From the NCBI GenBank assembly GCA_964424335.1, contig CAYRIY010000003.1, positions 17,727-81,726 of the forward strand: DNA of 64,000 nucleotides. The letters are read 5' to 3'. Source of the DNA: an uncultured Clostridia bacterium (lineage in GTDB: Bacteria > Bacillota > Limnochordia > DTU080 > RSA5). Position 1 is the first letter of the stretch, and every line of letters starts with the position of its first letter. A model generated the notes under the pieces. The model searched no databases, was not told the origin of the DNA, and saw nothing but the letters and a program-made list of their open reading frames with translations. The position numbers and the translations under genes were made by a program. Of the stretch, positions 20,151-60,539 are shown piece after piece.

Positions 20151-20229
20151 TGAGTCAGGTTAAAATGCGCATTCGGTCATAACAGCGCCGGCTTGTACAT
20201 AGGTTGTCGTGAACGTGGAGGGACGACCT

Positions 20230-21207
20230 ATGTCAACACTCATGGCCACCCAAGTGGCCGACCGCCGGCTTGCTCACGTATTGTCTATCCTTCCTCCTTG
20301 GGTTGAGGAGGCGCTTTCGTCGCTCGATCCCCGTGAGCGGTCCGAGGTCGAAGAGATTCGCATCTCTCAAGGCCAACCGCTCACGGTGACGCTCTCGGGC
20401 GGCGATCGGTTCATCTCGCCCAAGGCGCATGCCCACGCTCAGAGCCAAGACTTCCGCATCGAGAAGCATCATGTCGATTCAGTTTTGGACGCGATCACTC
20501 AGTCTTCCGTTTACGCCTTGGAAGAGGCGATGAAGGAGGGCTACCTGTCGCTGCCGGGCGGACACCGTGTCGGGATCTCCGGTAGGCCTAGGCTTGACCG
20601 CGGCGAGGTGGTCGGGTTTAGCTGCATCACGGGTTTCAACGTAAGGATCAACCGGCCCGTCCACGGAGCGAGCCGTCTTGTCTTGCCTTCCCTCATGCGC
20701 CCCGGCGGCACAATCTACTCTACATTGATCATCTCTCCCCCCGGCTGCGGCAAGACAACCCTCTTGCGCGATCTTGTGCGAACGCTCAGCGAGGGGGCGA
20801 GCGAGCTTGGCCTTCGCCCTCACAGGATCGGTGTGGCCGACGAGCGCTCGGAGATTGCCGGGTCGCACCTGGGCGTTCCCCAAAACGACCTCGGTCCCCG
20901 CACCGATGTGATCGATGCTTGTCCAAAGCGTATCAGTATGTCCATGTTGATTCGGTCGATGCGTCCGGACGTGGTGGCAACGGACGAGATCGGGCACCCC
21001 GATGACGTGCGGGCCGTGTCCGACGCTCGCAGCGCCGGTGTCGTCCTGCTTGTCACGGCGCACGGGGAGACGCTCAAGGATCTGACGGCCCGAGCGTCCC
21101 TTAGGCCGCTGCTCAAAGGGAGCTATTTTGGCCGCATCGTGATCCTTAGCCGCAGGAAAGGGCCGGGAACGGTGGAGCGTGTCATCAAGGGGAGGGAGGA
21201 GCTATGA
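20230..21207 (+). CDS. spoIIIAA: stage III sporulation protein AA (AAA+ secretion-type ATPase)
   Basis: Walker A PPGCGKTTLLRDL; first gene of an eight-gene cluster matching spoIIIA. Confidence 0.85.
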   Translation: MSTLMATQVADRRLAHVLSILPPWVEEALSSLDPRERSEVEEIRISQGQPLTVTLSGGDRFISPKAHAHAQSQDFRIEKHHVDSVLDAITQSSVYALEEAMKEGYLSLPGGHRVGISGRPRLDRGEVVGFSCITGFNVRINRPVHGASRLVLPSLMRPGGTIYSTLIISPPGCGKTTLLRDLVRTLSEGASELGLRPHRIGVADERSEIAGSHLGVPQNDLGPRTDVIDACPKRISMSMLIRSMRPDVVATDEIGHPDDVRAVSDARSAGVVLLVTAHGETLKDLTARASLRPLLKGSYFGRIVILSRRKGPGTVERVIKGREEL

Positions 21208-21710
21208 AGGCGATCGGAGCCGCTTTGGTCGTCGCCGGAGCGGCTTTGCTCGGGCATTTGGCCGCAAGCGAGCGGGAGCGGCGGGTCCGGGAGCTGGATG
21301 GCCTGCTTTACGGCCTCAATCTTCTTGAAACAGAGGTGGTATATGGTCTAACCATGCTCCCAATCGCACTCGAACGAGCGGCCCAAGGAGGATCGGGCGC
21401 AGGCGCTCTGTTTTCGACAGCGGCGCGAGAGCTGCGCAAGGGGAGCGGCGCGGCCAAGGCGTGGGTCGCCGGAATACGCGCGCTCGAGCGCCGCTCGGCT
21501 CTGAAGGAAGGAGACATGATGCCGCTTCTTTACTTGGGTGGAACGATCGGCCTCTCATCGGCGCAAGATCAAAGCCGCCACCTGCAACTGGCGCGGCGTC
21601 AGATCGAGGCGCGCCTCGAAGCGGAGCGAAGGCGCTTGCCTCAGGTCGCTCGGCTCGTCAGGGCGCTCGGCCTTTGCGGCGGCCTCGCAGCCGCACTCAT
21701 GCTTGTTTGA
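21204..21710 (+). CDS. spoIIIAB: stage III sporulation protein AB
   Basis: Position and size; overlapping start ATGA; membrane/GspF-like. Confidence 0.75.
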   Translation: MKAIGAALVVAGAALLGHLAASERERRVRELDGLLYGLNLLETEVVYGLTMLPIALERAAQGGSGAGALFSTAARELRKGSGAAKAWVAGIRALERRSALKEGDMMPLLYLGGTIGLSSAQDQSRHLQLARRQIEARLEAERRRLPQVARLVRALGLCGGLAAALMLV

Positions 21711-21785
21711 ATTGTGAGGTAATGAAGATGTACGCCCGGAAAGGCCGGAAAAATCGCGTTGACTCGCTATAGGAGGCTGGCGCCC

Positions 21786-21986
21786 TTGGACATCAGCATG
21801 GTTTACCGCATCGCAGGCCTTGGGATCATCATTGCCATCCTGAACATCGTCCTTGCACAAGCAGGCCGTCAGGAGCAGGCGCAGATGCTCAGCCTTGCCG
21901 GCGTGATCATCGTGTTGGTTTGGATCGTTCAGATGATCAGCAACTTGTTTGCAAACGTGGAGACGGTCTTTCAACTTTGGCACTGA
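21786..21986 (+). CDS. spoIIIAC: stage III sporulation protein AC
   Basis: ~66-aa double-TM protein (YRIAGLGIIIAILNIVL...) like SpoIIIAC; TTG 11 nt after GGAGG. Confidence 0.75.
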   Translation: MDISMVYRIAGLGIIIAILNIVLAQAGRQEQAQMLSLAGVIIVLVWIVQMISNLFANVETVFQLWH

Positions 21987-22001
21987 TAGGGGCGAAGAGG
22001 C

Positions 22002-22394
22002 TTGACGGATGTGATGCGCGTCGTCGGGCTCGGAATCGTCGTAAGCGTCCTTCTTACCGTGATTCGAAAGGATATTCCGCCGATTGGCGCGCAAGTTGCG
22101 GCGGCGTTCGTCGTGACGGCGCTCTTGATGTTGATGGAGCCGTTGGCTGGGGTCGTACGAGCTTTTGCGGAGCTCGCCTCAGGCGCGGGGGTGCGCACCG
22201 TCTACCTCGCTTTAGTCCTGAAGGCGGTGGCAATCGCCTTTATCACGTCGGTCGGCGCGGAACTGAGCCGCGACGCCGGGGAAGCGGCGATTGGATCGGT
22301 TGTGGAGCTGACGGGCAAGGTGTTCATTTTGCTCCTTGCAGTTCCGGTGATCGCCGCAATCCTTGATGCCCTGGTGAGCCTGCTGCCGGGGTGA
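22002..22394 (+). CDS. spoIIIAD: stage III sporulation protein AD
   Basis: 130-aa polytopic membrane protein paralogous to AC; position. Confidence 0.8.
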   Translation: MTDVMRVVGLGIVVSVLLTVIRKDIPPIGAQVAAAFVVTALLMLMEPLAGVVRAFAELASGAGVRTVYLALVLKAVAIAFITSVGAELSRDAGEAAIGSVVELTGKVFILLLAVPVIAAILDALVSLLPG

Positions 22395-22441
22395 AGAGCT
22401 CGCTACCGGGGTGAAAATCGAAGAACGGAAGGGAGGGCTGT

Positions 22442-23677
22442 ATGTCCTTGGATACTCGACGGCGTGTGATCATCCGAGCCGCGGCTCGGGCCTTTCTCAT
22501 CGGAAGCGTCATTTTGGCGGTCGCCTTAGGCAGTCTGCCAGGAGCTCTGGCGCAGACCGGATTTGACCGTCTACACCAGTCCCAGACGCCCCTCACGCCC
22601 GAGGAGATCGTCTCAAGCCAGATCGAGCAGCTCTCCCTGGAAGACCTCGACTCCTTTGTCAGGGCGCTCGATCCGAACGTCCGCGAGGCGCTCCCGCCGC
22701 TTGATTTGAAGCGGATGATCTTTGAAGGGGAGGGTGTCGAGTGGGGAGCATTGGGCGCTCGCATCGCCCGCGTCTTTCTGGATGAGGTCTCACTCAACCT
22801 GAGCCTCCTTGGTCAACTCATCGTACTCGGGGTTTTTTGCGCCCTCCTAAAAACGATCGCGTCCAGCACCAGGAGTTCGGAAGTCGCGGGCGTGGCAGTC
22901 CTTGTCTCGCTCTTGGCATTGCTTTACCTTGCGCTTTCGGCCTTTCGTTCGGTGGTCGCCACGGCGTCGGACACCCTGGATCAAATGGTAGGCTTCATGC
23001 TCGCCCTCTTGCCGGTTCTGTCGACGATGTTGGCGGCAGTCGGCGCAGTCTCGACGGCGGCGATCTTTCACCCGCTCCTATATGCGACGGTCACCGGGAT
23101 CGCCGCGCTCGTGCAAAACGTGCTTTTTCCCCTGGTTTACATATCTGCGGCGCTTGCCGTGATCGGCAGTTTGTCCAAAGAGTTTCCAGTAAAGCAGTTT
23201 TCAGGCCTCTTGCGCTCGGGCACGGTGCTCATTCTGGGATTCGCCTTCGTCGCGTTCTTTGCGGTCGTACAAGCCCGAGGCGCGATCGCGCCGATCGCGG
23301 ACGGCCTTGCGATGCGTACGGCCAAGTTGCTCACGGGCGCGTTTATTCCGGTGGTCGGTGGTCGCATCGCCGACGCGCTCGACGTGATCGTCGGCGGCTC
23401 CGTCTTGATCAAAAATGCGATCGGTGTATTTGGGATGGGCGCCATCGTCGTGATCACGGCGTTTCCGATCGCCAAGATTTTCTCGATTTTGACCATTTTC
23501 CGCCTTGCAACGGCTTTGGTCGAACCGATCGCAGACGAGCGGCTCGTGCAGGCGATGGCGGGCCTCTCGGGTAGTCTGACGTTGCTCCTTGCAGGCATGA
23601 TCACTGCGGCGCTCATGTTTTTCGTCGGGATCACCGTCGTCGTGGGGGTAGGGAACGCGACGGCGTTCATTCGCTAA
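22442..23677 (+). CDS. spoIIIAE: stage III sporulation protein AE
   Basis: 411-aa multi-TM protein with signal sequence; position. Confidence 0.85.
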   Translation: MSLDTRRRVIIRAAARAFLIGSVILAVALGSLPGALAQTGFDRLHQSQTPLTPEEIVSSQIEQLSLEDLDSFVRALDPNVREALPPLDLKRMIFEGEGVEWGALGARIARVFLDEVSLNLSLLGQLIVLGVFCALLKTIASSTRSSEVAGVAVLVSLLALLYLALSAFRSVVATASDTLDQMVGFMLALLPVLSTMLAAVGAVSTAAIFHPLLYATVTGIAALVQNVLFPLVYISAALAVIGSLSKEFPVKQFSGLLRSGTVLILGFAFVAFFAVVQARGAIAPIADGLAMRTAKLLTGAFIPVVGGRIADALDVIVGGSVLIKNAIGVFGMGAIVVITAFPIAKIFSILTIFRLATALVEPIADERLVQAMAGLSGSLTLLLAGMITAALMFFVGITVVVGVGNATAFIR

Positions 23678-23722
23678 ATCCTCGCACGGGCCACGTGCGT
23701 TGGATGGAGGTCAAGATGGGCA

Positions 23723-24244
23723 GTGGGAGCCTTGGCGGACTGGATCGTGCAGCTCGGGTACTTGGTGCTGATTGCCGGCCTTGTCGAGCTGCTCCTACCG
23801 AGCAACTCGGCGCGGGGCGCCGTGCGGCTCGTGGTCGGACTCGTCGTCATCCTCGCGATCGTTGAGCCTGTCGTGCGGTGGATCGGCGATCCAGGCTCGA
23901 TCGACCGGCTGTCCCAAAGCGTCATGGTCGAGGACGGCTCACGCTACATCGAAGCCGGCGTTCGCCTCACCGAAGAGTCGGCCATAGGAGCCTCGGCGGC
24001 GTGGGCGCGCAACTTGGAGCGGCAGTTGGCGGCCGTGTCCGCGCTGGTCGCGGGCGTCCGCGATGTCTCGGTTGAGGTAAAGCTGGACGGCGCCGACGTG
24101 ACCGGCGTCGAGGTCAATCTCAAGACCGACGAAGGCGCCTGGGAACGGGGCTCTGCGAGCGTCCACAGGCTGATCGAGAGCTTTCTGCCCGGGATCGACA
24201 AGAGCGCGATCGTGATAAACGGATCGGTAGGTGAGCAAAGGTGA
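23723..24244 (+). CDS. spoIIIAF: stage III sporulation protein AF
   Basis: N-terminal double TM (WIVQLGYLVLIAGLVELLLPS) typical of SpoIIIAF; GTG start. Confidence 0.75.
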   Translation: MGALADWIVQLGYLVLIAGLVELLLPSNSARGAVRLVVGLVVILAIVEPVVRWIGDPGSIDRLSQSVMVEDGSRYIEAGVRLTEESAIGASAAWARNLERQLAAVSALVAGVRDVSVEVKLDGADVTGVEVNLKTDEGAWERGSASVHRLIESFLPGIDKSAIVINGSVGEQR

Positions 24245-24900
24245 ACCGTTGGTCGGACACATGGAAAGATTGGTGGAAGCGCTCGGGATTGTTTGGGGGG
24301 GCCCAGGCTGAGAAGGGTGAGGTCCCCGAGCCCCCCCAAGCAAACCCGAGCAGACTTCGGTACCTGGCCATTTTGATCTTGATCGGCGTAGGCCTCGTTC
24401 TGATCAGCAACCCAAGGGGAGCACCGGACGAGGAGCCCGCGGTCGGGTCGCCGGCATTCCCGACGAACGGCGGCATCGCCCCCGTGCAATCGAACTACGC
24501 CGGGTACGTCGATGAGCTGGAGCGGGAGGTTACGCTCGCCGTCACGCAGATCGCCGGAGTCGGCAACGTGGTGGTCTTGCTCGTGCCCGCGACCTCGGAG
24601 GTCAGCGTATTGGCAGAAGAGGTCACGGAGCGGGAGAGCGAGTCGACCGACGCCGGTGGAGAGGAGGGGAGTACGCGCTATGAGCGGAGCGTGACTCGCA
24701 GGCCGATCACCGTGACCGGAGATGACGGCAGACGGCAGGATCCTGTTTTACTCTATACCCAAAAGCCCGAGATCGCCGGCGCTCTCATCGTGGCGGACGG
24801 AGCGAGAGATCCTCGGATTCAATACCTCGTCGTGCGGGCGGTTTCGACCGTGCTCGGCATTCCTCCGCACAAAGTCGAGGTCGTGCCAAAGAAGTCGTAA
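24241..24900 (+). CDS. spoIIIAG: stage III sporulation protein AG
   Basis: N-terminal TM plus C-terminal YscJ/FliF-like ring-building domain; position. Confidence 0.8.
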   Translation: MNRWSDTWKDWWKRSGLFGGAQAEKGEVPEPPQANPSRLRYLAILILIGVGLVLISNPRGAPDEEPAVGSPAFPTNGGIAPVQSNYAGYVDELEREVTLAVTQIAGVGNVVVLLVPATSEVSVLAEEVTERESESTDAGGEEGSTRYERSVTRRPITVTGDDGRRQDPVLLYTQKPEIAGALIVADGARDPRIQYLVVRAVSTVLGIPPHKVEVVPKKS

Positions 24901-24933
24901 ATCAATCCAAGGCAGGTGGTGGAGGTGTTCATC

Positions 24934-25632
24934 GTGATTGGAAAATCGGTGTGGAAGCGTGGAATCCTCATCATCGGACTACTGACCGCGGCAGCCATCT
25001 TTTATGTCATGTCGCAGATCCAGGATCCGTCCCGAGAAAGCACGGGAACGCTTGTGTTCAGCAATCAGTTCATGCCCGGCATCGAACCTGAAAGCACGGC
25101 ACAGTCGGCGGCTTCCGATCCGATCCAAGCGCCGATCGAGTCCGCGGACGCAAGCAAGCTTGGGGACCTCGAGGCGATCGCGACGCTTGCTATGACGCCG
25201 TCGCCCGAACCGGGCTCCGATGCGCTTTCGGCCTCACTGCTGGTGGCAGCGGAGCCAGAGCCCTTCGCGAGCGTCGTACGCAGCCCGGGGTTTGACACGT
25301 ACCGCCTCATGCGTGAACAAAACAGGTCGCGGCAAATCGAAGCGATCCAAGGAATGCTGCAAGCCGATCGCTTGACCGATGGCGAGCGTCGCGAGCTTCA
25401 AAATCAGCTTCTCCAGATGCTTTCCATGCGTGAACTCGAGGAGCGAGCGGAAGGTCTCTTGGTCGCACGGGGCCTCTCCGACGTGATCGTGATGCTCGGG
25501 CGATCGGGCGCGGAGGTTGTCGTCGCAGACGCTTTGGAGCAGCAAGACGCGGCCCGCATCGGGGATGTCGTCGCTCGCCTTGCAGGCGTTCCACTCGACG
25601 CCATCACGATCGTCGACGGGGCGGGCCTATAG
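24934..25632 (+). CDS. spoIIIAH: stage III sporulation protein AH
   Basis: N-terminal TM plus YscJ-like domain; last gene of the cluster; GTG 8 nt after GGAGG (ORF opens at 24916). Confidence 0.8.
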
Positions 25633-25710
25633 GTCAAGGGCGCGTTCATTGCTTATATGAGGCGGCCATGACCCGAAAAAATCGATCTTCGATCTTGGGA
25701 TCGAAATCCC

Positions 25711-25768
25711 ACCTTGCGCGAGCATCCCTCGGGCGTTTGTGCCGGCCCGAGGGATGCTCGCGCAAGGT
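25711..25768 (+). other. perfect 24-bp inverted repeat (hairpin, 10-nt loop) between spoIIIAH and accB
   Basis: ACCTTGCGCGAGCATCCCTCGGGC - GTTTGTGCCG - GCCCGAGGGATGCTCGCGCAAGGT; no U-tract follows. Confidence 0.9.
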
Positions 25769-25886
25769 TCGCTTGGTGGGTGCCCGGCCCGTTGAATGGG
25801 AAGGAATAACTTACGTCAACACGAACCAGATTACGATACGATTCACGCATCGGCGCGAACGTTTGCCGCCGAAAGGGGAACGCTTC

Positions 25887-26357
<471 letters not shown>

Positions 26358-31535: not shown

Positions 31536-31814
31536 GTGAGCGAGGAGAAATCAGGCGTCGGCGTTGGCGGCTCGGAAAACGCCACGTTCGAGGAGGCCTT
31601 TAAGGAGCTCGAGTCGATCGTGCGCAAGCTCGAGGGCGGTGACGTGAAGCTCGAGGAGTCCCTCAAGCTCTTTGAAGAGGGAGTGCGCCTCGCGCGCGCC
31701 TGTTCGGCGAAGTTGGACGCTGCGGAGGGTAAGATCAGGCTGCTCCTCGAGGGGGAGGATGGGTCGCCTGTCGAAGCGCCCTTTGACGACTTGCCTGGAG
31801 CGGCCTCCTCGTGA
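31536..31814 (+). CDS. xseB: exodeoxyribonuclease VII small subunit
   Basis: FEEAFKELESIVRKLEGGDVKLEESLKLFEEG; GTG after AGAGGAG; 124-nt spacer after xseA. Confidence 0.85.
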   Translation: MSEEKSGVGVGGSENATFEEAFKELESIVRKLEGGDVKLEESLKLFEEGVRLARACSAKLDAAEGKIRLLLEGEDGSPVEAPFDDLPGAASS

Positions 31815-32803
31815 GCCGATTAAAGGGGACGTCCACGGTTGCCGAAGCCTTGCGCGAGCGGGTAGAGCGGGTCGAGGAAGCGCTTCACGCCCTCTTGCCG
31901 CACCCGAGCGCGTTTCCTGAGGTCATTCACGAGTCCATGCGCTACAGCACGCTTGGAGGCGGCAAGCGGCTTCGTGCGGTGCTCTTGATGGAGGCCGCCG
32001 CGCTCGTGTCTGCACTGCCAGCGGCGCGACGCGTCTCCCCCGATGAAGCGTCCGTGCACATCACGCCCGAATTAATGCGGTCCGTCGGCGCGGCCCCGGC
32101 AGCCGGCGCTGCGGTGGAGATGGTGCACGCCTTCTCCCTGATCCATGACGATCTTCCGTGCATGGATGACGACGACCTTAGGCGCGGCAAGCCTACAAAC
32201 CACAAAGTGTACGGTGAAGGGATCGCGGTATTGGCAGGGGACGGGCTCTTGGCGCGTGCCTTTGAAGTGACCGCAAGGTTGCCCTGGGCTGGAACGGATC
32301 ATCAAACAGCCGCCCTTGTTACGGCCGAACTCGCGATGGCTGTGGGCTCGGGCGGGATTGTCGGGGGCCAGGTTGCCGACATCCAGGCAGAGAGTCGTTC
32401 GTTCGACGATTCCTCTCTTGATTCTCACGAGACGCTCGCCTACATTCATGCGCATAAGACAGGAGCGCTCTTTGTTGCCAGCCTGCGTATAGGCGGGATC
32501 ATCGGGGGAATGACCCCTGATGAGCTTGCCCAGTTGACATCTTTTGGCGAAAGCATCGGCCTTGTGTTCCAAATCGTGGACGACATCCTCGACGTCGAAG
32601 GCGAGGCGAGCGCCATGGGCAAAAATGTCGGCGGCGACGAGGAACGCGGCAAGCTTACGTATCCCGCCTTATACGGCCTCGATGCTTCCAAACGCCGCGT
32701 CGCGGAGGAGATGGAGCGCGCGGGCTCGGCGCTCGATGTGTTCGGCGAGAAGGCGGCGTTCCTGAGGGCGCTTGCAGAGGCGATGGCGTTACGCCGTTCG
32801 TAG
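31811..32803 (+). CDS. ispA: (2E,6E)-farnesyl diphosphate synthase
   Basis: FARM LIHDDLPCMDDDDLRRGKPT and SARM FQIVDDILD. Confidence 0.9.
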   Translation: MSRLKGTSTVAEALRERVERVEEALHALLPHPSAFPEVIHESMRYSTLGGGKRLRAVLLMEAAALVSALPAARRVSPDEASVHITPELMRSVGAAPAAGAAVEMVHAFSLIHDDLPCMDDDDLRRGKPTNHKVYGEGIAVLAGDGLLARAFEVTARLPWAGTDHQTAALVTAELAMAVGSGGIVGGQVADIQAESRSFDDSSLDSHETLAYIHAHKTGALFVASLRIGGIIGGMTPDELAQLTSFGESIGLVFQIVDDILDVEGEASAMGKNVGGDEERGKLTYPALYGLDASKRRVAEEMERAGSALDVFGEKAAFLRALAEAMALRRS

Positions 32804-32829
32804 TGGTATAATATAAACGACTTTAGGAT

Positions 32830-33500
32830 AGGTGGTGCAGTATCCTAGTCAGACTTCGGCCTTTGAAGACGGGCCTAAAAATCCGTCGCGGGCACATCGA
32901 TGAAGTCCCTGGTGGTGGCCATCGACGCCCAGTCGGGGGTTGCTGCTGGGGGTTAAGGTGATGGGGCGATCTACAATGGCATGTAGGCGTTGACCCCGTC
33001 TCCGCGGAGACCCACGTCCGTGGGGAACCGCTTGCGTATCGTGCTTCGTGGTTCGGGCGCAAGCGGAGAACTACGGCTTGGGGTTAAACCTGCACGCGAT
33101 GCAAGTCGACAGGTCGGAGGTTCGGACTTGTCGCAAGTGTTGGGTGCAGTGTAGCCTGCCTTGAGTGGCGGGGGTGGGATAGCAGGTATCAGCTCGCTTG
33201 CTTCCATGGCCAGGGAGAAAGTGAGTCCTTGCTGCTTGAAACCCTTACTGCAAAAGAGGCTAGAAGGTTTTGAAGTCTGTCGAGGAAAACTCCTAGGCTG
33301 TTCCCTTGCGGGAGGCCTTGCGGGGATTACGGTGTGGTCTGAGTGGCAATCCAGCCTTGCCGTCGGTGACGCGGCAAAGTGGCCGGAAAGGGGAAACCGC
33401 CGAGGACGGTGACGTCGCGGAGGGCCGCTGGGAAAACCTGCTGGACCTTAAGCCACAATCTTTACTCGCAAGGCTGCCACCTATGCCGTTTTTTCTATTG
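32830..33500 (+). ncRNA. ole: candidate OLE (ornate, large, extremophilic) RNA
   Basis: ~860-nt gap between ispA and dxs with no credible ORF, dense GC-rich helices and GNRA-like loops, ending in a T-run near 33490; ispA-ole-(oapA)-dxs is the described OLE locus; boundaries approximate. Confidence 0.5.
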
Positions 33501-33665: not shown

Positions 33666-35582
33666 GTGCCCAGGTTACTCGATTCGATCGACTCTCCCCA
33701 GGACTTAAAGGGATTGAGCATCGATCAACTGGAAAAACTCGCAAGCGAGATCAGGGAAGAGATGGTTGCAACGGTGTCTCGCACCGGAGGACATCTCGGC
33801 GCCAACCTGGGGGCGGTTGAGCTTACCATCGCTTTACATACAGTGCTTGACTCTCCCAAAGACAAGATTGTTTGGGACGTCGGCCACCAAGCCTACCCGC
33901 ACAAACTGTTAACCGGGAGGAGAGACCGCTTTCACACGCTCCGGCAGGAAGGTGGGATCAGCGGCTTTCCGAAGATGGCCGAGAGTCCCCACGACGCCTT
34001 TGGCGTGGGTCACGCAGGCACCTCGATCTCAGCCGCGCTCGGCTACGCAGTCGCCCGAGACAGGTTGGGTGAGCGCTACGCCGTGGTGAGCGTAACGGGA
34101 GACGGCGCCCTCACGGCAGGTATGGCCTTTGAAGCGCTCAACAACGCGGGCGACCTTGGCGTTGACCTCGTGGTGATCATCAACGACAACGAGATGTCGA
34201 TCGCGCCCAACGTGGGCGCTCTCTCAGCGTACCTCGCCCGAGTGCGGATGGACAAAAAGATCCGGCGAGCTCGTGATGAGATCGAAGGTCTCATAAAGCG
34301 AATTCCGGCGATCGGGGGCCCCGTGGTCAAGTCGGCCGAGCGCGTCAAGGAATCGCTTTTCAACATGATCTCGCCTGGCGCGTTCTTTGAGAGTTTGGGC
34401 TTTAGTTACTACGGCCCGATGGATGGCCACAACATTGCGGTGATGCAGCGGGTGATCCGTGACGCAATCGAGCGGGGCGGTCCCGTCTTGATCCACGCGG
34501 TCACCGAAAAGGGGCGCGGCTACGCGCCCGCCGAGAAAGACCCCGGCAAGATGCATGCGATGAAGCCGGCGGCGAATGCGACCGCGCCCAAAGTCGCGGC
34601 CGATCCTCCCCCGGTCAAGGCTCCTTCGTACAGCCAGGTCGTAGGTGACACCCTAATCGAGTTGACCAGGGAAGATCCGCGCGTGGTGGGCATAACCGCC
34701 GCCATGCCCGATGGCACCGGGCTCGACCGTCTGGCGGCGGCGTTTCCTGACCGCTGCTTTGACGTCGGGATCGCCGAGCAGCATGCGGTGACATTTGCCG
34801 CAGGCCTTGCCTGCGCAGGGATGAAGCCGGTCGTCGCGATCTATTCAACCTTTTTGCAGCGTGGATACGATCAGTTGATCCACGATGTCTGCTTGCAGGA
34901 CCTTCCCGTCACGTTCGCCATTGATCGGGCCGGACTCGTGGGCGACGACGGGCCGACGCACAACGGCACGTTCGACATCGCTTACCTTCGCACCACGCCG
35001 AACATCGTCCTCATGGCGCCCAAGGACGAGAACGAATTGCGCCGCATGCTAAAGACGGCCGTTGATGCAGGCAGGCCGGCGGCCATTCGGTTTCCGAGGG
35101 GCTCAGGGCTCGGCGTCCCTCTCGACGAGCAATTGGAGCCGATTCCGATCGGCAAAGCCGAACTGTTGATGGACGGCAATGACGTTGCGATTTTCGCGCT
35201 GGGAAGTATGGTGGCGCCCGCGCTCGAAGCAGCGAGGGCGCTCGCTGATGACGGCATCTCATGCGCGGTCGTCAATGCCCGTTTTGTCAAACCGCTCGAC
35301 GGAGAGCTCCTACGCGCGCTCGGCGAGTCGGTCGGCCGCATCGTCACGGTCGAGGAGCACGCGCTGGCGGGCGGGTTTGGCTCGGCGGTCCTTGAAGCGC
35401 TAAACGAAAGCGGATCGGAGGCGCGTGTGAAGCGCCTCGGCATTCCCGACATCTTTGTGGAACAAGCAAGTCCCGCTGCCCAGCTGGCTGCGTGCGGCCT
35501 CAATTCGAGGGGCATCCAGGCCGCGTGCCGCAGCCTGCTCCAATCGGAAGCTCCGGAGAAGGTGGCCACAGGACGGGCCTAA
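33666..35582 (+). CDS. dxs: 1-deoxy-D-xylulose-5-phosphate synthase
   Basis: TPP-binding GDG..T.GMA.EALN, transketolase-like domains; GTG after GAGGAG. Confidence 0.95.
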   Translation: MPRLLDSIDSPQDLKGLSIDQLEKLASEIREEMVATVSRTGGHLGANLGAVELTIALHTVLDSPKDKIVWDVGHQAYPHKLLTGRRDRFHTLRQEGGISGFPKMAESPHDAFGVGHAGTSISAALGYAVARDRLGERYAVVSVTGDGALTAGMAFEALNNAGDLGVDLVVIINDNEMSIAPNVGALSAYLARVRMDKKIRRARDEIEGLIKRIPAIGGPVVKSAERVKESLFNMISPGAFFESLGFSYYGPMDGHNIAVMQRVIRDAIERGGPVLIHAVTEKGRGYAPAEKDPGKMHAMKPAANATAPKVAADPPPVKAPSYSQVVGDTLIELTREDPRVVGITAAMPDGTGLDRLAAAFPDRCFDVGIAEQHAVTFAAGLACAGMKPVVAIYSTFLQRGYDQLIHDVCLQDLPVTFAIDRAGLVGDDGPTHNGTFDIAYLRTTPNIVLMAPKDENELRRMLKTAVDAGRPAAIRFPRGSGLGVPLDEQLEPIPIGKAELLMDGNDVAIFALGSMVAPALEAARALADDGISCAVVNARFVKPLDGELLRALGESVGRIVTVEEHALAGGFGSAVLEALNESGSEARVKRLGIPDIFVEQASPAAQLAACGLNSRGIQAACRSLLQSEAPEKVATGRA

Positions 35583-53116: not shown

Positions 53117-53668
53117 ATGGCCACTGTCGTAGGTGTCTTTTCCAGCCACGAACAGGCGGAGAAAGCAGTACGTTCTCTGCAGGACAAAGGGTTCACCAAA
53201 GATGATATCAGCATCGCCGCGCGGGACGATCGCCAGGGATCCGGCGATCAGAACGAAGGCGGGGGTCAGGGCGAGAACGGCTTTGGCTTCGAGGCTGGTG
53301 GCGATATGGGGATGAGTTCCGACTCGGTGACCGACGGCACGGCGTGGGGTGGGGCGCTCGGCGGGCTTGCGGGCTTGCTCGCCGGTGTTGGCGCGCTTGC
53401 GATCCCGGGCATCGGCCCGATCGTAGCCGCGGGTCCTCTGGCTGCAGCGCTTTCGGGCGCGGTGGCGGGAGGTGTCGCCGGCGGCTTGATCGACTTTGGC
53501 ATTCCAGAGCAAGAAGGTCGCCGATATGAGAACGAGCTAAAGCAAGGGAACGCTTTGGCGATCATCAAGGCTGAAGGCGACAAGGCCGAAATCGCCGAAT
53601 CGATCCTGCAGCAGTCGGGTGCGAACGAAGTGCAGGTGTTTGACGGCAACGGGTCGGAATCGCACTAA
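53117..53668 (+). CDS. YflT/DUF1269-type general stress protein (glycine-zipper membrane-associated)
   Basis: N-terminal VVGVF...A..AV..L...GF and C-terminal GIPE.EGRRYE..L..G..L motifs around a Gly/Ala-rich segment. Confidence 0.7.
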   Translation: MATVVGVFSSHEQAEKAVRSLQDKGFTKDDISIAARDDRQGSGDQNEGGGQGENGFGFEAGGDMGMSSDSVTDGTAWGGALGGLAGLLAGVGALAIPGIGPIVAAGPLAAALSGAVAGGVAGGLIDFGIPEQEGRRYENELKQGNALAIIKAEGDKAEIAESILQQSGANEVQVFDGNGSESH

Positions 53669-53835
53669 CCGCGTCCTGCTCACCGCTGGGAGTCGAAAGG
53701 GCTCGGAGCATCCCGAGCCCTTTCGCTGCCTCGTTGTCAGCGCCCGTCACGGGCTAGGCAATGGTTGACAAGCCTTTCCCAATGAGGCAAAATGGGCTTA
53801 AAAGAATCCAATTGCAGACTAACTGCGAGGGCCAT

Positions 53836-53996
53836 AGAGGCGCGAGAGACAAGAGTAGGGTCGTTGAGGCAAGGGCAGCCAGTGAAGCGACCGCGAAAGG
53901 GGATCTCGCCGAAGTTCGACTTTTCGCCCGGTAAAGTCGGACTGGGGTGGCGGCAAAGAGCCGTCGCACTGCCACCGTGATCGGTGGAGCGCTATC
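53836..53996 (+). promoter_or_regulatory. lysine riboswitch (L-box) aptamer
   Basis: L-box blocks in order: AGAGGCGCGAG...AGAGTAGGG, GAAAGGGGATCTCGCCGAAG, GTCGCACTG, GGTGGAGCGCTATCC, all close to the B. subtilis lysC leader. Confidence 0.8.
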
Positions 53997-54026
53997 CCGG
54001 CAGCACGAAAAGGGCTTATAGCGTTC

Positions 54027-54056
54027 GGTTGGCTTTCAATGTGCCAGCCTTTTTTT
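54027..54056 (+). terminator. intrinsic terminator (L-box expression platform)
   Basis: GGTTGGC-TTTCAATGT-GCCAGCC stem-loop followed by TTTTTTT, ~40 nt upstream of dapB. Confidence 0.6.
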
Positions 54057-54097
54057 TATGCCCCGATGAGTTTCATAAATTAAGGAGGCATTCCCCC

Positions 54098-54898
54098 ATG
54101 AACGTGGTGGTTAGCGGAGCCGGCGGCAAGATGGGCCGCGAGGTGGTACGAGCCGTCCACGGCGCGAACGACATGGAACTGGTCGGCGCCATCGATCCGT
54201 TTTGCGCCGGAGAGGATGCCGGCGAACTTGCGGGCCTGGGCTCCCTAGGCGTGCCTGTATACGCTTCGATCGAGGAAGCGTTTGAGCAGACCGACGCGGA
54301 TCGCATGGTCGACTTTACCACGCCCGATGCGGTTTTTGACAACGTCATGACGGCCCTCGATCTTGGTAAGCGGGTCGTCTTTGGCACGACGGGCCTGGAT
54401 GAGGAGCGCCTGCAAGAGATCGATGCGCGGGCGCGTGAGCGATCGCTTGGCGTCGTACACGCTCCAAACTTTGCCATCGGCGCCGTCCTCATGATGCGAT
54501 TTGCCGCCGAGGCCTCCCGGTTTTTTGACCAGGTGGAGATCATCGAACTCCACCACGATCAAAAGAAAGACGCGCCGAGCGGAACCGCAATCAAGACCGC
54601 AGAGCTGATTGCAGAGGCGAGAAAGTCTCGAGGCGAAGTGGCTGCAGTCACCGAGACCGAAGTGGTTGCGGGGGCGCGCGGCGGGGAGGTCCAGGGCGTG
54701 CAGGTACATAGCGTCAGGTTGCCGGGACTCGTAGCGCACCAGGAGGTGTTGCTCGGACTTCCGGGTCAGACGCTCACCATTCGGCACGACTCCTTTGATC
54801 GGGCTTCATTCATGCCCGGCGTGCTGCTTGCGCTGCGAAAGGTCGGGGAGATTACGGGGTTGGTTTACGGCCTCGAGCACCTTCTTTTCGAGGAGTAA
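54098..54898 (+). CDS. dapB: 4-hydroxy-tetrahydrodipicolinate reductase
   Basis: NAD(P)-binding VVVSGAGGKMGRE, E(L/I)HH.K.D.PSGTA; ATG after AAGGAGG. Confidence 0.9.
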   Translation: MNVVVSGAGGKMGREVVRAVHGANDMELVGAIDPFCAGEDAGELAGLGSLGVPVYASIEEAFEQTDADRMVDFTTPDAVFDNVMTALDLGKRVVFGTTGLDEERLQEIDARARERSLGVVHAPNFAIGAVLMMRFAAEASRFFDQVEIIELHHDQKKDAPSGTAIKTAELIAEARKSRGEVAAVTETEVVAGARGGEVQGVQVHSVRLPGLVAHQEVLLGLPGQTLTIRHDSFDRASFMPGVLLALRKVGEITGLVYGLEHLLFEE

Positions 54899-54940
54899 AT
54901 CTCGCGTCGGGTCGGACCTTGTCGGCATTTACGGCGAATC

Positions 54941-54968
54941 ACCCGCCTACCTGAAGCGTCATAGAGTA
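54941..54968 (+). promoter_or_regulatory. candidate sigma-K-type promoter (AC-17-CATAGAGTA) upstream of dpaA
   Basis: Matches the mother-cell sigma-K consensus AC-N16/17-CATAnnnTA; spoVF (dpaAB) is sigma-K-dependent in B. subtilis. Confidence 0.35.
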
Positions 54969-55020
54969 CTACTGTACATGGCATGCGATCGACGCTCCGG
55001 AAAAAAGGGAGGCGACCTCC

Positions 55021-55911
55021 TTGCCAGGCGCGGATGGACTGCGAGTGGCAATGCTCGGGGGCGATGAACGAGAACTGGTGTTGCTAAGGAGCCTCCTCGA
55101 TCACAAGTTTCATGTGGTCGTGGCCGGGTACCCCGACCTGCCCGAGATTAGCGGATCGACTCGGGCTCAGAGCGTGTATGAGGCGGTGAAGGGCGCAGAC
55201 GCCGTCGTCTGTCCAATGAGCAACACGGACGAGGAGGGTGTCATCAAGGCGTGCCTCGACCGGTCGGTGCGACTGGTCCTGGACGAGAAGGCGTTCTCGC
55301 TGATGGGCGCCGGGACGCCGCTCTTCATCGGGGTGGCAAAGCCAAAGATCGAGATGCTCGCGGTAAAGTACGGCGTGCGCTTGGTCCAAGTCGCCGAGGT
55401 CGACGAGGTTGCGGTCTTAAACTCCATTCCCACGGCAGAAGGAGCGATCGCTAAGGCGATGGCGGAACTCGAGGTGACGCTCCACGGCAGCCGCGCAGTC
55501 GTCGTCGGTTTTGGGCGGTGCGCCGTGACGCTCGCTCGAATGCTTGCGGGAATAGGAGCGAAGGTCCGGGTGGTTGCGAGGGATCGGGCGCAGCTCGCCA
55601 GGGCGTTCGAAATGGGACTCGATACAGGGCGCCTTCTCGAAATTGCGCGTTTCGTCGAGGACGCGGCAGTGGTCTTTAATACGGTTCCCGCGATGATTCT
55701 CAGCCGTGACGTGCTTTCGCGGATGCCAAAATCGGCCGTTGTCATCGACATTGCCTCTGCGCCTGGGGGGACGGACTTTCAAGCTGCCGGCGAACTTGGA
55801 ATCAAGGCTTTCTTGGAACTTGGCATTCCCGGGAAGGTCGCTCCAAAGACGGCCGGAGAAGTCTTGGCAAACGTCGTGCCGCCGATGATTCTCGAGGCCT
55901 GCGGCCGCTAG
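55021..55911 (+). CDS. dpaA: dipicolinate synthase subunit A
   Basis: Rossmann-like domain (VVVGFGRCAVTLARML), DpaA family; TTG after GGGAGG. Confidence 0.85.
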   Translation: MPGADGLRVAMLGGDERELVLLRSLLDHKFHVVVAGYPDLPEISGSTRAQSVYEAVKGADAVVCPMSNTDEEGVIKACLDRSVRLVLDEKAFSLMGAGTPLFIGVAKPKIEMLAVKYGVRLVQVAEVDEVAVLNSIPTAEGAIAKAMAELEVTLHGSRAVVVGFGRCAVTLARMLAGIGAKVRVVARDRAQLARAFEMGLDTGRLLEIARFVEDAAVVFNTVPAMILSRDVLSRMPKSAVVIDIASAPGGTDFQAAGELGIKAFLELGIPGKVAPKTAGEVLANVVPPMILEACGR

Positions 55912-55941
55912 CTTGGAGCGTTCAATCTCGAAAGGCCGGGG

Positions 55942-56598
55942 ATGGGTCGCTTTGTCGTGTGCACCAACTTTCAGGGCGAGAGGTGCATACACAAATTGCG
56001 CTTGCAGGGTAAGACGATAGGCTGGGGGGTCTGCGGTTCGCACTGCAGTTACGAAGAAGTGCTGCCGCAGGTCGAATCGGTAATCAAAGAGGGCGCCAGA
56101 GTGATCCCGGTGATGTCCAACACGGCGATCACCACACAGACACGGTTTGGGACGCCGGAAAACTTGGCCGCCCAACTCAAAGCGATAACCGGGAACGATC
56201 CGATCACATCGATCGTAGAGGCCGAGCCCTCGGGTCAAAAGAAGACGTTTGATTGCTTTGTCATCGCACCTTGTACGGGGAATACGCTGGCCAAGCTTGC
56301 AAATGCGTTTACGGACACGCCTGTGCTGATGGCCGCCAAGGGCACGCTTAGGAACTGGCGTCCCGTCGTCGTCGCGATTTCGACCAACGACGCGCTTGGC
56401 AACAATGCAAAGAACATCGGGATACTGCTAAACACACGCAACATGTACTTCGTGCCCTTTGGCCAAGACAATCCCGAAGCAAAGCCAAACTCGTGTGTCG
56501 CAGACTTCAACCTGGCCAAGGACACGGTGATCGAAGCGCTCAATGGAAGACAGTTGCAACCGGTAATCATCGAGAGGTCTAGGAGGGCGATCCGATAG
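55942..56598 (+). CDS. dpaB: dipicolinate synthase subunit B (flavoprotein-like)
   Basis: GWGVCGSHCSY... and IAPCTGNTLAKLA motifs of the DpaB/SpoVFB family. Confidence 0.85.
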   Translation: MGRFVVCTNFQGERCIHKLRLQGKTIGWGVCGSHCSYEEVLPQVESVIKEGARVIPVMSNTAITTQTRFGTPENLAAQLKAITGNDPITSIVEAEPSGQKKTFDCFVIAPCTGNTLAKLANAFTDTPVLMAAKGTLRNWRPVVVAISTNDALGNNAKNIGILLNTRNMYFVPFGQDNPEAKPNSCVADFNLAKDTVIEALNGRQLQPVIIERSRRAIR

Positions 56599-56629
56599 GA
56601 CCGCCCTGGCGAAAGAAAGGGTGTTGTCG

Positions 56630-57673
56630 ATGTCTGCTTTGAACGTCGCGATCTTGGGTGCGACCGGGGTCGTCGGAATGGAACTTCTCAAAATCCTCGA
56701 GGAGCGGAACTTTCCCATAGGTTCGCTCAAGCTCTTGGCATCGCCTCGCAGCGCGGGAAAGAAGGTCCGATTCAAAGATCAGGAACTGACGATCGAGGCG
56801 GTCGGCCCCGAGGCATTCCGCGGCATCGACATCGCTTTTTTCAGCGCCGGAGGGAGCGTGAGCCAGGAGTGGGCGCCCATCGCCGTCTCCAGCGGCGCGC
56901 TCGTCATCGACAATACAAGCGCGTTTAGGTTAGATCCTGACGTGCCGCTCGTCGTCCCGGAAGTAAATTCACACGCAATCGGCGAACACAAGGGAATCAT
57001 TGCAAATCCCAACTGTTCGACGATCATTATGGCGGTTCCCCTTGCGCCGATCTACAGGGAGTTTGGCATCCGCCGCGTCGTCGTCTCGACCTATCAGGCA
57101 GTTTCCGGCGCCGGACTCCAGGCGATGCAAGAGCTCGAAGAGCAGGTGCGGGCCTATGCCGAAGGAAGACCGATGGAGGCAAACGTCCTACCGGTGGCGT
57201 CGCTTCCGGTTCATCATCAGATCGCCTTTAATTTGATACCTCACATCGACGTCTTTCAAGATCTGGGCTACACCAAAGAAGAGTGGAAGATGGTCCATGA
57301 GGCGCGCAAGATTTTGGGCGCGCCGGATCTCAAGGTGTCGCCGACGACGGTCCGAGTTCCCGTCTTGCGCAGCCACTCCGAATCGATCAACGTCGAGACC
57401 GAACGGTACGTCTCCGCGGACGACCTGCGTGCGGTCTTGCAAAGCGCCGAGGGGGTCGAAGTTGTCGACGATCCTGAGCGCCTCGAGTATCCGATGCCCT
57501 GGCAGGCATCGGGGAAGGACCCGGTGTTCGTCGGTAGGATCAGACAAGATCCGACTGTCGAGAACGGCATCAACATGTTTGTGGTCGGCGACCAGATCCG
57601 CAAAGGCGCGGCTTTGAACGCAGTGCAGATCGCCGAGCGCGCCTTGGCAGATGGGCACTTGAGGGCCCGTTGA
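56630..57673 (+). CDS. asd: aspartate-semialdehyde dehydrogenase
   Basis: VAILGATGVVG, active-site NPNCSTI; ATG 10 nt after GAAAGGG. Confidence 0.9.
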   Translation: MSALNVAILGATGVVGMELLKILEERNFPIGSLKLLASPRSAGKKVRFKDQELTIEAVGPEAFRGIDIAFFSAGGSVSQEWAPIAVSSGALVIDNTSAFRLDPDVPLVVPEVNSHAIGEHKGIIANPNCSTIIMAVPLAPIYREFGIRRVVVSTYQAVSGAGLQAMQELEEQVRAYAEGRPMEANVLPVASLPVHHQIAFNLIPHIDVFQDLGYTKEEWKMVHEARKILGAPDLKVSPTTVRVPVLRSHSESINVETERYVSADDLRAVLQSAEGVEVVDDPERLEYPMPWQASGKDPVFVGRIRQDPTVENGINMFVVGDQIRKGAALNAVQIAERALADGHLRAR

Positions 57674-57700
57674 TCAATGGGACATAAGGAGAGAGCGCGT

Positions 57701-58582
57701 GTGACACCTTTTGGAGAAGTTTTGACGGCAATGGTGACACCGATGAGGCCTGACGAATCCGTCGATCTGGAGAAAGCGAAGGAACTGGCTCGCTTCTTGG
57801 TCGACCACGGCTCAGACGGCCTCGTCGTATGCGGCACGACCGGAGAGTCGCCCACGTTGACGGCAGACGAGAAGTTGAGTTTATTTGAAGCCGTCGTCGA
57901 GGCGGTCGGCGACCGGGCCACGGTGATCGCGGGGACGGGTTCTTACAATACGCATGAGAGCGTCTCCTTGACGGCGAAGGCGTCGTCTACCGGCGTGGAC
58001 GGGGTGATGCTCGTCGTCCCATACTACAACAAGCCGCCGCAGGAGGGCCTCTATCAACATTTTCGCAAAGTCTCCGAGGCGACGGAGCTGCCGGTGATGC
58101 TCTACAATGTGCCGCCCAGGACGAGCCGCAATCTCGAGCCCGAAACCGTAGCTCGCCTTGCGGAGCTTCCAAACATCGTCGCGATCAAGGAAGCGGCGGG
58201 AGACATGGAGCAAGTGAGCCGGTTGAAAGCGCGCCTTCCCGAATCGTTCGCGATTTACAGCGGAGAGGACAGTCTCACGCTGCCGATGCTTTCGCTCGGC
58301 GCCGTGGGTGTCGTGAGCGTCGCCTCCCACGTGGTCGGTGAGACGATCAAAGAGATGATCCAAGCCTTTCGATCCGGCGACACCGATGCCGCTCGAGCTT
58401 GCCACGATCGGCTGATGCCGGTCTTTAAGGCGCTGTTTGTCACGACCAATCCGATCCCCGTCAAGTGGGCGATGAGCCTCTTTGGCCTGGACATGGGACC
58501 GTTTCGTCTGCCGCTCGTCCCTCCGACACCCGCGGAACAGGCCACCGTCAAGGAAGCCCTCCGCAATTTCGGCGTTTTGTGA
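57701..58582 (+). CDS. dapA: 4-hydroxy-tetrahydrodipicolinate synthase
   Basis: GTTGESPTL, VVPYYNKP, catalytic lysine region IVAIKEA; GTG after AAGGAGAG. Confidence 0.9.
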   Translation: MTPFGEVLTAMVTPMRPDESVDLEKAKELARFLVDHGSDGLVVCGTTGESPTLTADEKLSLFEAVVEAVGDRATVIAGTGSYNTHESVSLTAKASSTGVDGVMLVVPYYNKPPQEGLYQHFRKVSEATELPVMLYNVPPRTSRNLEPETVARLAELPNIVAIKEAAGDMEQVSRLKARLPESFAIYSGEDSLTLPMLSLGAVGVVSVASHVVGETIKEMIQAFRSGDTDAARACHDRLMPVFKALFVTTNPIPVKWAMSLFGLDMGPFRLPLVPPTPAEQATVKEALRNFGVL

Positions 58583-58706
58583 TCCGGTCTCAACGTTTAG
58601 ACGTCGACCTGGCGTGTCAAACGCGAGGCGTAAAGCGCGGCGAAGGTTTCCCCGGCGATAAGGGGGCGCCTTCGCCTGCTTCGTTTTCAGCGCATCCGAT
58701 TTTTGC

Positions 58707-58735
58707 TTGCTGCGCCCGTGAAAGAGCAGTATAAT
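58707..58735 (+). promoter_or_regulatory. sigma-A-type promoter (TTGCTG-17-TATAAT) for the RNase J gene
   Basis: Hexamers read directly; leaves a ~135-nt leader. Confidence 0.4.
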
Positions 58736-58871
58736 TGGCTTTAGTGTGTGTTTGACCGGATTTCATTTTTTGAAAGCGTTCATCGACACATTCTAAGTAT
58801 GGATCGACGCGGGGTTCCAGGACGCCGGGGCTTTTCACGCGTCGCTCCCGCGGAGGTGCTTTTCGCGCATC

Positions 58872-60539
58872 ATGTCCACAACTCAATCAGCTGTTTCGCT
58901 TCTTCCGCTCGGCGGGGTCGGTGAGATCGGCAAGAACCTCTGGGTCGTCGAGCAGAATGGCGAAATTCTCGTGCTCGACTGCGGGGTCATGTTTCCCGAT
59001 GACGAGATGCTCGGGGTGGATCTCGTGATCCCGGACGTCTCGTACTTGGTAGAACGCCGGGACAAGGTACGGGCCATCGTCCTCAGCCACGGGCACGAGG
59101 ACCACATCGGAGCTCTGCCTTACGTGCTCAGGCAACTCAACGTGCCCGTTTACGGCACGCCCTTGACGCTCGGACTCGTCGAGCCCAAATTGGAAGAGCA
59201 CGGTCTGCTCAGAGAGACCGTCCTAAAGCCGATTCATGCCGGCGAGCGGCTGCAACTTGGCAGCTTTGACCTCGAGTTCATCCACGTAAACCACTCGCTT
59301 CCTGATGTCGTCGCCATTGCTATTCGCACGGGCGTCGGCATCATCCTATACGCCACCGATTTCAAGTTTGATTACACGCCGATCGATGGCAAGGTGACCG
59401 ACTTGCAGCGCTTGGCCGAGATCGGCAAAGAGGGCGTCGCCTGTCTCCTTTCCGACAGCACCAACGCCGAGCGCCCGGGGTATACGCTGTCTGAAAAGAC
59501 GGTCGGCCAAACGTTGATCGAGGCGTTTCGTCGAGCGACGAAGCGGGTGGTCGTTGCGACATTCGCGTCCAACATCCATCGCGTTCAGGAAGTCTTCGAC
59601 GCGGCCCACATGTTTGGGCGCAGAGTCTGCGTCATCGGCAGGAGCATGATCAAAAACGTCGAGATCGCATCGAGGCTGGGATACCTGCAAATCGCGGACG
59701 GAATCCTGGTTGACGTCGACGAGCTGCAAGACCTCCCCCCTGAGCGCGTCGCCATCATCTCGACGGGAAGCCAAGGGGAGCCCATGGCGGCGCTCACCCG
59801 CATGGCATCAAACGAACACCGAAGAATTACGATCGATCCGGGCGACACGGTCGTGATCTCGGCGAGTCCGATTCCGGGAAATGAACGGTCCATCGGCCGG
59901 ACGATCAATCAACTTTTTAAGCAAGGCGCTAACGTGATCTACCACGCCGTGAGCGGCGTCCACGTCTCAGGCCACGCAAGCCAAGAGGAGCTCAAATTGA
60001 TGCTCAGCCTGGTCCGGCCGCGATTTTTCGTGCCCATTCACGGGGAGTACCGCATGCTGATCGCACACGCCCGCTTGGCCGAGGACCTCGGAATCGCCGA
60101 GGAAAACATCGTCATCCCGGAGATTGGAGACCGGATCGAAATATCGGCTGAAAAGATCCGAAAGGGCGTCCCCGTCGCCGGCGGCCAAGTCCTCGTGGAT
60201 GGGCTCGGCGTGGGCGACGTCGGCAACATCGTGCTGCGTGACCGCCAGCAGCTTTCCAAGGACGGAATCTTGATCGTCGTGATCGGCCTCGACAAACAAA
60301 AAGGCAAGGTCGTTGCGGGTCCCGACATCATCTCGCGCGGCTTTGTCTACGTTCGCGAGTCGGAGAAGTTGATCGAAGAGGCCCGTGCACTGGTGAGCGG
60401 CACGCTGAGCGAGATTGCGCTCGATCGAGTCTCGGAGTGGAATATGATCAAGACCGAGGTCCGAGACGCGCTCCAGCGGTACTTGTACGAAAAGACCAAA
60501 CGCCGACCGGTCATTTTGCCGATCGTGATGGAAGTTTAG
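58872..60539 (+). CDS. rnj: ribonuclease J
   Basis: Metallo-beta-lactamase HGHEDHIG, beta-CASP and C-terminal domains; 555 aa. Confidence 0.9.
   Translation: MSTTQSAVSLLPLGGVGEIGKNLWVVEQNGEILVLDCGVMFPDDEMLGVDLVIPDVSYLVERRDKVRAIVLSHGHEDHIGALPYVLRQLNVPVYGTPLTLGLVEPKLEEHGLLRETVLKPIHAGERLQLGSFDLEFIHVNHSLPDVVAIAIRTGVGIILYATDFKFDYTPIDGKVTDLQRLAEIGKEGVACLLSDSTNAERPGYTLSEKTVGQTLIEAFRRATKRVVVATFASNIHRVQEVFDAAHMFGRRVCVIGRSMIKNVEIASRLGYLQIADGILVDVDELQDLPPERVAIISTGSQGEPMAALTRMASNEHRRITIDPGDTVVISASPIPGNERSIGRTINQLFKQGANVIYHAVSGVHVSGHASQEELKLMLSLVRPRFFVPIHGEYRMLIAHARLAEDLGIAEENIVIPEIGDRIEISAEKIRKGVPVAGGQVLVDGLGVGDVGNIVLRDRQQLSKDGILIVVIGLDKQKGKVVAGPDIISRGFVYVRESEKLIEEARALVSGTLSEIALDRVSEWNMIKTEVRDALQRYLYEKTKRRPVILPIVMEV

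Follow-up and report, generated by a model that had tools for sequence, protein, structure and literature searches.

The DNA analysed here is a 64 kb stretch (64,000 nucleotides, hereafter the window) from an uncultured Clostridia bacterium, which carries the consecutive genes dapB-dpaA-dpaB-asd-dapA of the diaminopimelate (DAP), lysine and dipicolinate (DPA) pathways. We read them as one composite unit of five genes that RNA polymerase can enter at two points, namely at a lysine-attenuated vegetative start before dapB and at an internal SigK promoter for dpaAB-asd-dapA, and give this reading a probability of about 0.72. The most useful new result is the depth and consistency with which a sigma-K-type promoter is conserved before dpaA. 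The value of the locus lies mainly in annotation and comparative genomics, no part being new.

Gene identities were assigned with curated NCBIfam family models, and all five genes scored above a cut-off:

54098 to 54898, + strand: dapB, 4-hydroxy-tetrahydrodipicolinate reductase (TIGR00036, 288.5 bits, cut-off 122)
54939 to 54968, + strand: sigma-K-type promoter, -35 TCACC, 17-nt spacer, -10 CATAGAGTA, conserved upstream of dpaA
55021 to 55911, + strand: dpaA (spoVFA), TTG start (NF006162, 331 bits, cut-off 261)
55942 to 56598, + strand: dpaB (spoVFB) (NF006161, 296 bits, cut-off 156; TIGR02852, 268 bits, cut-off 229)
56621 to 57673, + strand: asd, aspartate-semialdehyde dehydrogenase (NF011456, 496 bits, cut-off 223)
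57677 to 58582, + strand: dapA, 4-hydroxy-tetrahydrodipicolinate synthase (TIGR00674, 371 bits, cut-off 206)

DpaA also reached 285 bits against TIGR02853, under the cut-off of 319.65; both DpaA and DpaB pass a curated equivalog model, and their genes are adjacent. The intergenic gaps measure 122 nt (dapB-dpaA), 30 nt (dpaA-dpaB), 22 nt (dpaB-asd) and 3 nt (asd-dapA). A preliminary description of this DNA had placed dpaAB between dapB and asd-dapA and had reported that the dapG aspartokinase was missing, and both statements hold. The 3-nt gap between asd and dapA contains no dapG-type aspartokinase, and tblastn with two aspartokinases from relatives detected none in the operon or the whole window. 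No dap paralogues were found elsewhere in the 64 kb.

The sigma-K-type promoter before dpaA

An AC-N17-CATAGAGTA motif occupies positions 54941-54968, with the AC at 54941-54942 and the -10 at 54960-54968 (whole element ACCCGCCTACCTGAAGCGTCATAGAGTA). In B. subtilis the sigma-K consensus is AC / CATA---TA. With its -35 AC and -10 CATA---TA, about 17 nt apart, the element of the window agrees with the sigma-K consensus of PMC3789822. The predicted transcription start lies near 54975. Counted back from the TTG codon of dpaA, the -10 begins at 61 nt and ends at 52 nt, close enough to the distance of 55 nt given in the preliminary description.

Taken alone, this motif is weak evidence, as single-genome consensus matches are of low specificity. 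The motif is the sole match to the pattern ACN17CATANNNTA on the two strands of the window, where 0.14 are expected, and this uniqueness speaks for a promoter. When the window was shuffled 100 times, however, the pattern turned up in 11 of the shuffles, a result that weighs against a promoter and would favour a chance match. It is conservation across related loci that makes the motif convincing beyond chance. A DpaA-based scan with one genome per species gave 80 loci, the closest DpaA being 51% identical, and 20 of these, in which dpaAB is still linked to the neighbourhood of M16 peptidase or asd/dapA, were taken as a set. Within this set, AC-N16/17-CATAnnnT(A/G) was present at most 130 nt upstream of dpaA in 16 loci, and in 19 when the search was extended to 170 nt with one -10 mismatch allowed; the background in the same loci was 10 matches in 485 kb, or 0.0027 per 130 nt. 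Furthermore, the element precedes dpaA in all ten closer relatives (the clade set, 58-74% DpaA identity) and in 12 of 12 metagenome loci, and it is present with or without dapB upstream of dpaA. Alignment of 17 non-redundant loci on the -10 revealed conservation at positions not required by the search, namely a gCACC -35 (TCACC in the window) and T/A at -10 positions 5-6. The motif thus keeps the same position in about 40 orthologous loci of highly divergent lineages, although the spacer sequence around it shows no conservation, and we find it barely credible that the match arose by chance and marks no promoter.

Recognition by SigE, or by SigE and SigK, rather than by SigK alone was also considered. 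The two factors share a near-identical -10 (CATA---T), whereas the -35 is AC for sigma-K and ATA for sigma-E (PMC3789822); in addition, the SigK protein of the window itself scores 267-269 bits against SigE models, the factors being close. The conserved gCACC contains AC, not ATA, and therefore points to sigma-K over sigma-E. Moreover, sigma-E-type candidates occur in the window itself, ahead of spoIIIAA and of a pdaB-like gene, with ATA as their -35, and the B. subtilis spoVF genes belong to the sigma-K regulon (PMC6878958). Reading by SigE is, on this evidence, improbable, and the internal promoter is predicted to be used by SigK.

The sigma factor itself is encoded in the window:

11518 to 12249, + strand: sigK, uninterrupted, without a skin-like insertion (TIGR02846, 346 bits, cut-off 298.65)

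Since the window also encodes Spo0A, SpoIVB and the spoIIIA operon, the organism can be regarded as a spore-former with the cognate sigma factor. A sigma-K-type element, GCAC-N17-CATATGAT, lies upstream of sigK (-10 at 11477-11485; gene and element together 11456-12249) and is consistent with sigK autoregulation. The candidate promoter of the preliminary description is well supported by its presence in nearly every orthologous locus, by the gCACC -35 and by the SigK gene in the window. As its conservation extends across very deep Bacillota lineages, it may serve as an anchor for predicting sigma-K regulons in uncultured spore-formers.

Separately, the spoIIIA operon (AA, AE and AF identified) was located at 20175-26357 (+), and the gene ahead of it encodes a CD1247 N-terminal domain. 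A sigma-E-type element, ATA-N16-CATAGGTT, stands before spoIIIAA at about 20175-20205.

The lysine riboswitch leader and probable read-through from dapB

The upstream entry point comprises a promoter, an aptamer and a terminator. The following features were identified ahead of dapB:

53694 to 53725, + strand: strong 13-bp hairpin that follows the YflT-like gene and marks where the unit begins
53765 to 53793, + strand: sigma-A-type leader promoter TTGACA-17-CAAAAT, 10/12 match, predicted to drive the riboswitch leader
53827 to 54002, + strand: lysine riboswitch aptamer RF00168, 104.4 bits, full-length
54012 to 54026, + strand: anti-P1 segment GGG...AUAGCGUUC, from minimum-free-energy folds
54027 to 54057, + strand: intrinsic terminator of the expression platform, GGUUGGC, 9-nt loop, GCCAGCC, then U8

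A lysine riboswitch (L-box) with a terminator before dapB had been proposed, together with an Rfam search as a check, and the search bore out the riboswitch. Covariance models run over the whole window gave three matches, RF00168, RF01071 and RF00013. The RF00168 match (E 9.7e-27, gathering score 30) spans the full model, positions 1-182 of 182, and lies on the same strand as dapB, with its 3' end 96 nt 5' of the dapB ATG. The sigma-A-like promoter is placed 34 nt upstream of the aptamer. It is the sole sigma-70-like site at 10/12 within 53400-59000 and the best in 53700-58900, where only one other site, ahead of rnj, reaches at least 9/12. The hairpin at 53694-53725 folds at -36.2 kcal/mol (z -4.16, with 0 of 200 shuffles folding equally well) and has no U-tract.

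The terminator consists of a 7-bp hairpin with arms at 54027-54033 and 54043-54049, followed by U8 at 54050-54057, and folds at -12.5 kcal/mol (z -2.5). It was missed by a generic terminator scan because the loop limit of that scan was 8 nt. Strongly conserved parts of the leader within the clade are GGTTGACA and the -10, the core of the aptamer and, in the terminator, the 5' arm and the T-run; GGTTGACA and an nAnAAT -10 are kept in loci L082-L085. Neither the 5' arm of the hairpin, CGGUUGGCU, nor the T-run varies in the clade, and the pairing of the 3' arm survives an A/G change. A hairpin with a U-tract 3' of the aptamer was observed in the window, four clade relatives and three distant loci, and its presence in the distant L-box loci fits a transcriptional OFF switch. 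The leader is predicted to respond to lysine.

The folds also bear on how the switch would open. The anti-P1 segment is complementary to the P1 3' strand GAGCGCUAUCCC (53987-53998) and adjoins the terminator without overlapping it. Two observations weigh against a simple OFF switch: the anti-P1 helix and the terminator coexist in the thermodynamic folds, and the mutually exclusive antiterminator expected of such a switch was not identified in them. A long-range candidate, in which the P1 5' strand and its 5' flank pair with the terminator 5' arm and loop, looked compensatory in L138; no clear signal emerged when duplex energies were compared between cognate and non-cognate pairs, since some of the latter scored better and the distant loci were weak. 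A two-part antiterminator involving the P5 5' strand is feasible, yet it is 13 kcal/mol worse than the minimum-free-energy fold and was set aside as unsupported.

In growing cells, the sigma-A-type promoter would transcribe the riboswitch leader. With lysine bound, P1 would form, and the hairpin with U8 would stop the polymerase before it reaches dapB. Under lysine shortage, the anti-P1 segment would capture the P1 3' strand and the polymerase would enter dapB. A polymerase past the terminator would most likely continue into dpaA-dpaB-asd-dapA, since no terminator interrupts the 122-nt spacer and the genes beyond it lie close together.

Read-through across this spacer is plausible for two reasons. 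The spacer contains no hairpin plus U-tract (it lacks T-runs of 4 or more, and its folding is not significant at z -0.27), nor do those of the closest relatives, and no other sigma-A-like promoter precedes asd, none at 8/12 or better being found upstream of asd, inside dpaA or dpaB. The probable 3' end of the operon is a terminator-like hairpin after dapA:

58633 to 58688, + strand: terminator-like hairpin GGCGAAGG...CCUUCGCC with UGCUUCGUUUUC tail (-36.3 kcal/mol, z -2.69)
58707 to 58735, + strand: promoter-like TTGCTG-17-TATAAT ahead of rnj (RNase J), following that hairpin

Alternatively, the genes may form two separate units. A riboswitch-controlled monocistronic dapB would then end in the 122-nt spacer through Rho or an unrecognised signal, dpaA-dpaB-asd-dapA would be purely sporulation-specific, and vegetative asd and dapA activity would depend on an internal promoter that escaped recognition or on paralogues at other places in the genome. 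Several observations favour this arrangement over the composite unit. The Syntrophomonas-type loci L004 and L007 carry an obvious hairpin and T-run after dapB, which shows that not every such locus is co-transcribed; with read-through, vegetative cells starved of lysine would contain DPA-synthase mRNA, an apparent waste; and the paralogue search covered the 64 kb only, so that second asd and dapA copies could exist elsewhere in the genome. The spacers of the window and its closest relatives nevertheless lack a hairpin plus U-tract, and no sigma-A-like promoter stands before asd, in a dpaB-asd gap of just 22 nt. We therefore regard two separate units as unlikely and retain the composite unit.

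The preliminary description had extended lysine attenuation to the whole DAP/lysine branch. This was overstated: dapB is the only gene certainly behind the riboswitch, control of asd-dapA needs read-through, and lysA, dapF and lysC are not in the operon. Its proposal of layered control is supported at the sequence level in this qualified form.

In late sporulation, RNA polymerase with SigK in the mother cell would start near 54975 and produce a dpaA-dpaB-asd-dapA transcript. As this transcript begins downstream of the riboswitch terminator, it would be blind to lysine. It would also omit dapB, whose product competes for the DapA product used by DpaAB. DapA makes 4-hydroxy-tetrahydrodipicolinate (HTPA)/dihydrodipicolinate, which DpaAB oxidises to dipicolinate and DapB reduces toward DAP and lysine. 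A sporulation transcript with asd, dapA and dpaAB and without dapB would push flux to dipicolinate at any lysine level; we infer this flux-partition logic from the gene order. The locus thus offers a clean, testable example of a riboswitch-gated biosynthetic operon in which an internal developmental promoter would bypass the metabolite sensor, its placement leaving DapB, the competitor for the branch-point intermediate, out of the sporulation transcript.

Control at the level of dpaA translation was also considered. The Shine-Dalgarno (SD) sequence of dpaA, GGGAGG at 55007-55012, is 8 nt ahead of the TTG start. Occlusion of this SD in read-through transcripts, by pairing with the dapB 3' end as seen in one fold, was rejected: SD accessibility in long versus short transcripts of five clade loci gave no consistent direction of effect. 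The SD (GGAGG) also lies within a small hairpin, AGGGAGG-CGA-CCUCCUU, at 55006-55023 (+) beside the start codon. The hairpin and the TTG start together suggest that translation would start weakly; relatives do not keep the hairpin, which is also not significant against shuffles.

Distribution among relatives and the block at the predicted start site

Many Clostridia-type Bacillota share the order dapB-dpaA-dpaB-asd-(aspartokinase)-dapA-rnj, which was found in Moorellales, Syntrophomonadaceae, Heliophilum, Thermincola, Thermacetogenium, Desulforudis and others. The preliminary description was right that the layout differs from that of B. subtilis, but it is not unusual. The L-box ahead of dapB is patchier than the gene order itself. 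It was detected in three of the 12 species-representative loci that contain dapB (Heliophilum fasciatum, Thermanaeromonas sp. and Clostridiales bacterium PH28_bin88; two of the 12 end too near dapB to judge), in two of nine dapB-containing metagenome loci and in 7 of the 10 clade loci. L-box, dapB and a sigma-K promoter before dpaAB are combined in 13 loci including the window, and recurrence in the 12 others marks the arrangement as a lineage feature and not a one-off. Against the weight given here to lysine control, the aptamer is missing in three clade relatives, which indicates that the riboswitch layer is dispensable.

Two of the aptamer-less loci, L135 (3454-3602) and L139 (3480-3626), keep the same promoter (GGTTGACA...AAAAT) and a terminator-like hairpin with T-run before dapB, a state that looks like a clean deletion of the aptamer. 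The aspartokinase was lost only in the window, its closest relative L082 and L139, and is kept in 8 of the 10 clade relatives. In L135 the order is dpaB-aspartokinase-dapA, without asd. In L085 (3599-4400) a frameshift splits dapB, and either misassembly or a pseudogene could account for it. The nearest named DpaA homologues belong to Limnochordia and unclassified Bacillota metagenome-assembled genomes. DNA identical to the window was found only on short contigs, in the JGI metagenomes Ga0180215 and Ga0182742 and the Logan run SRR29457795 (L086, L087, L081).

Alignment of the clade also revealed a conserved block immediately after the promoter:

54969 to 54987, + strand: conserved block CTACTGTACATGGCATGCG at the predicted start site and in the early 5' untranslated region (clade alignment)

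The core CTAnnGTACATGG is kept in 8 of 11 clade loci, namely the window, L082-L085, L135, L136 and L140. Directly 3' of the sigma-K -10, the block reads CTA(C/T)(T/C)GTACATGG(C)ATGCG and is more conserved than the remaining spacer in these eight loci. In L082 the inner hexamer is inverted, CAGTAG for CTACTG. A hexamer of the CAGTAG/CTACTG type occurs at most 25 nt from the -10 in 9 of 21 loci, compared with a background of about 2%, a pattern recognised post hoc.

A more far-reaching model would take the sigma-K promoter, always placed between dapB and dpaAB-asd-dapA, as a conserved flux-partition device, the CTAnnGTACATGG block as the site of a mother-cell regulator or an RNA element timing or gating DPA synthesis, and the aptamer-less L135 and L139 as evidence of a second, riboswitch-independent control of the terminator. 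If this were true, the block could, for example, stop read-through transcripts from the riboswitch promoter from yielding DPA synthase in vegetative cells. We consider this model quite unlikely and offer it as speculation; the conserved start-site block and the aptamer-less relatives that keep promoter and terminator are the most curious loose ends of the analysis.

Regarding the surroundings of the operon, genes for an M16 peptidase, a dUTPase, and PRC/YmxH-like and YflT-like proteins lie upstream, and those for RNase J and a TepA-like ClpP downstream. The two other Rfam matches lie elsewhere in the window. A full-length OLE RNA (RF01071, 485.9 bits, 32816-33496, +) sits between the farnesyl-diphosphate synthase gene (31811-32803) and dxs (33666-35582), and a 6S RNA (RF00013, 80.2 bits, 686-873, +) just 5' of a MgsA/RarA-type AAA ATPase gene.

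Comparison with known systems

The L-box of B. subtilis lysC belongs to the same aptamer family, RF00168, and likewise lies in the 5' leader of a lysine/DAP gene with an expression platform that ends in a hairpin and U-tract; this shared ending implies a lysine-OFF switch in the window. The two systems differ in that dapB, and probably a five-gene unit, is controlled here instead of aspartokinase II, and in that the classical antiterminator, with the P1 3' strand overlapping the terminator 5' arm, could not be drawn.

Other L-box-regulated DAP operons of Bacillota include lysA-asd-dapA-dapB in C. difficile and lysC-asd-dapA-dapB-dapD in Staphylococcus (PMC5584792, Table 1). As in those cases, the L-box of the window precedes a DAP operon of several genes, asd, dapA and dapB among them, whereas none of the operons in that table has dpaAB or an internal sporulation promoter.

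The closest parallel to the downstream part is the B. subtilis "dap operon", spoVFA-spoVFB-asd-dapG-dapA (Chen et al. 1993; Daniel & Errington 1993, both as cited in PMC6878958). In both operons a sigma-K-type promoter immediately precedes dpaA, and asd-dapA follow further downstream on the same strand. In contrast to B. subtilis, the window has dapB with an L-box directly upstream and no dapG, and the 22 nt between dpaB and asd leave no room for a separate vegetative promoter before asd. In B. subtilis, such a promoter precedes asd. The gene neighbourhood of the operon (M16 peptidase, PRC/YmxH-like, dpaAB, asd, dapA, RNase J, TepA-like) matches that of the B. subtilis spoVF region. A literature search found no prior description of an L-box-dapB-dpaAB operon. 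The arrangement, common in genomes and apparently undiscussed in print, is composed entirely of known parts and represents a variation on the B. subtilis dap/spoVF operon.

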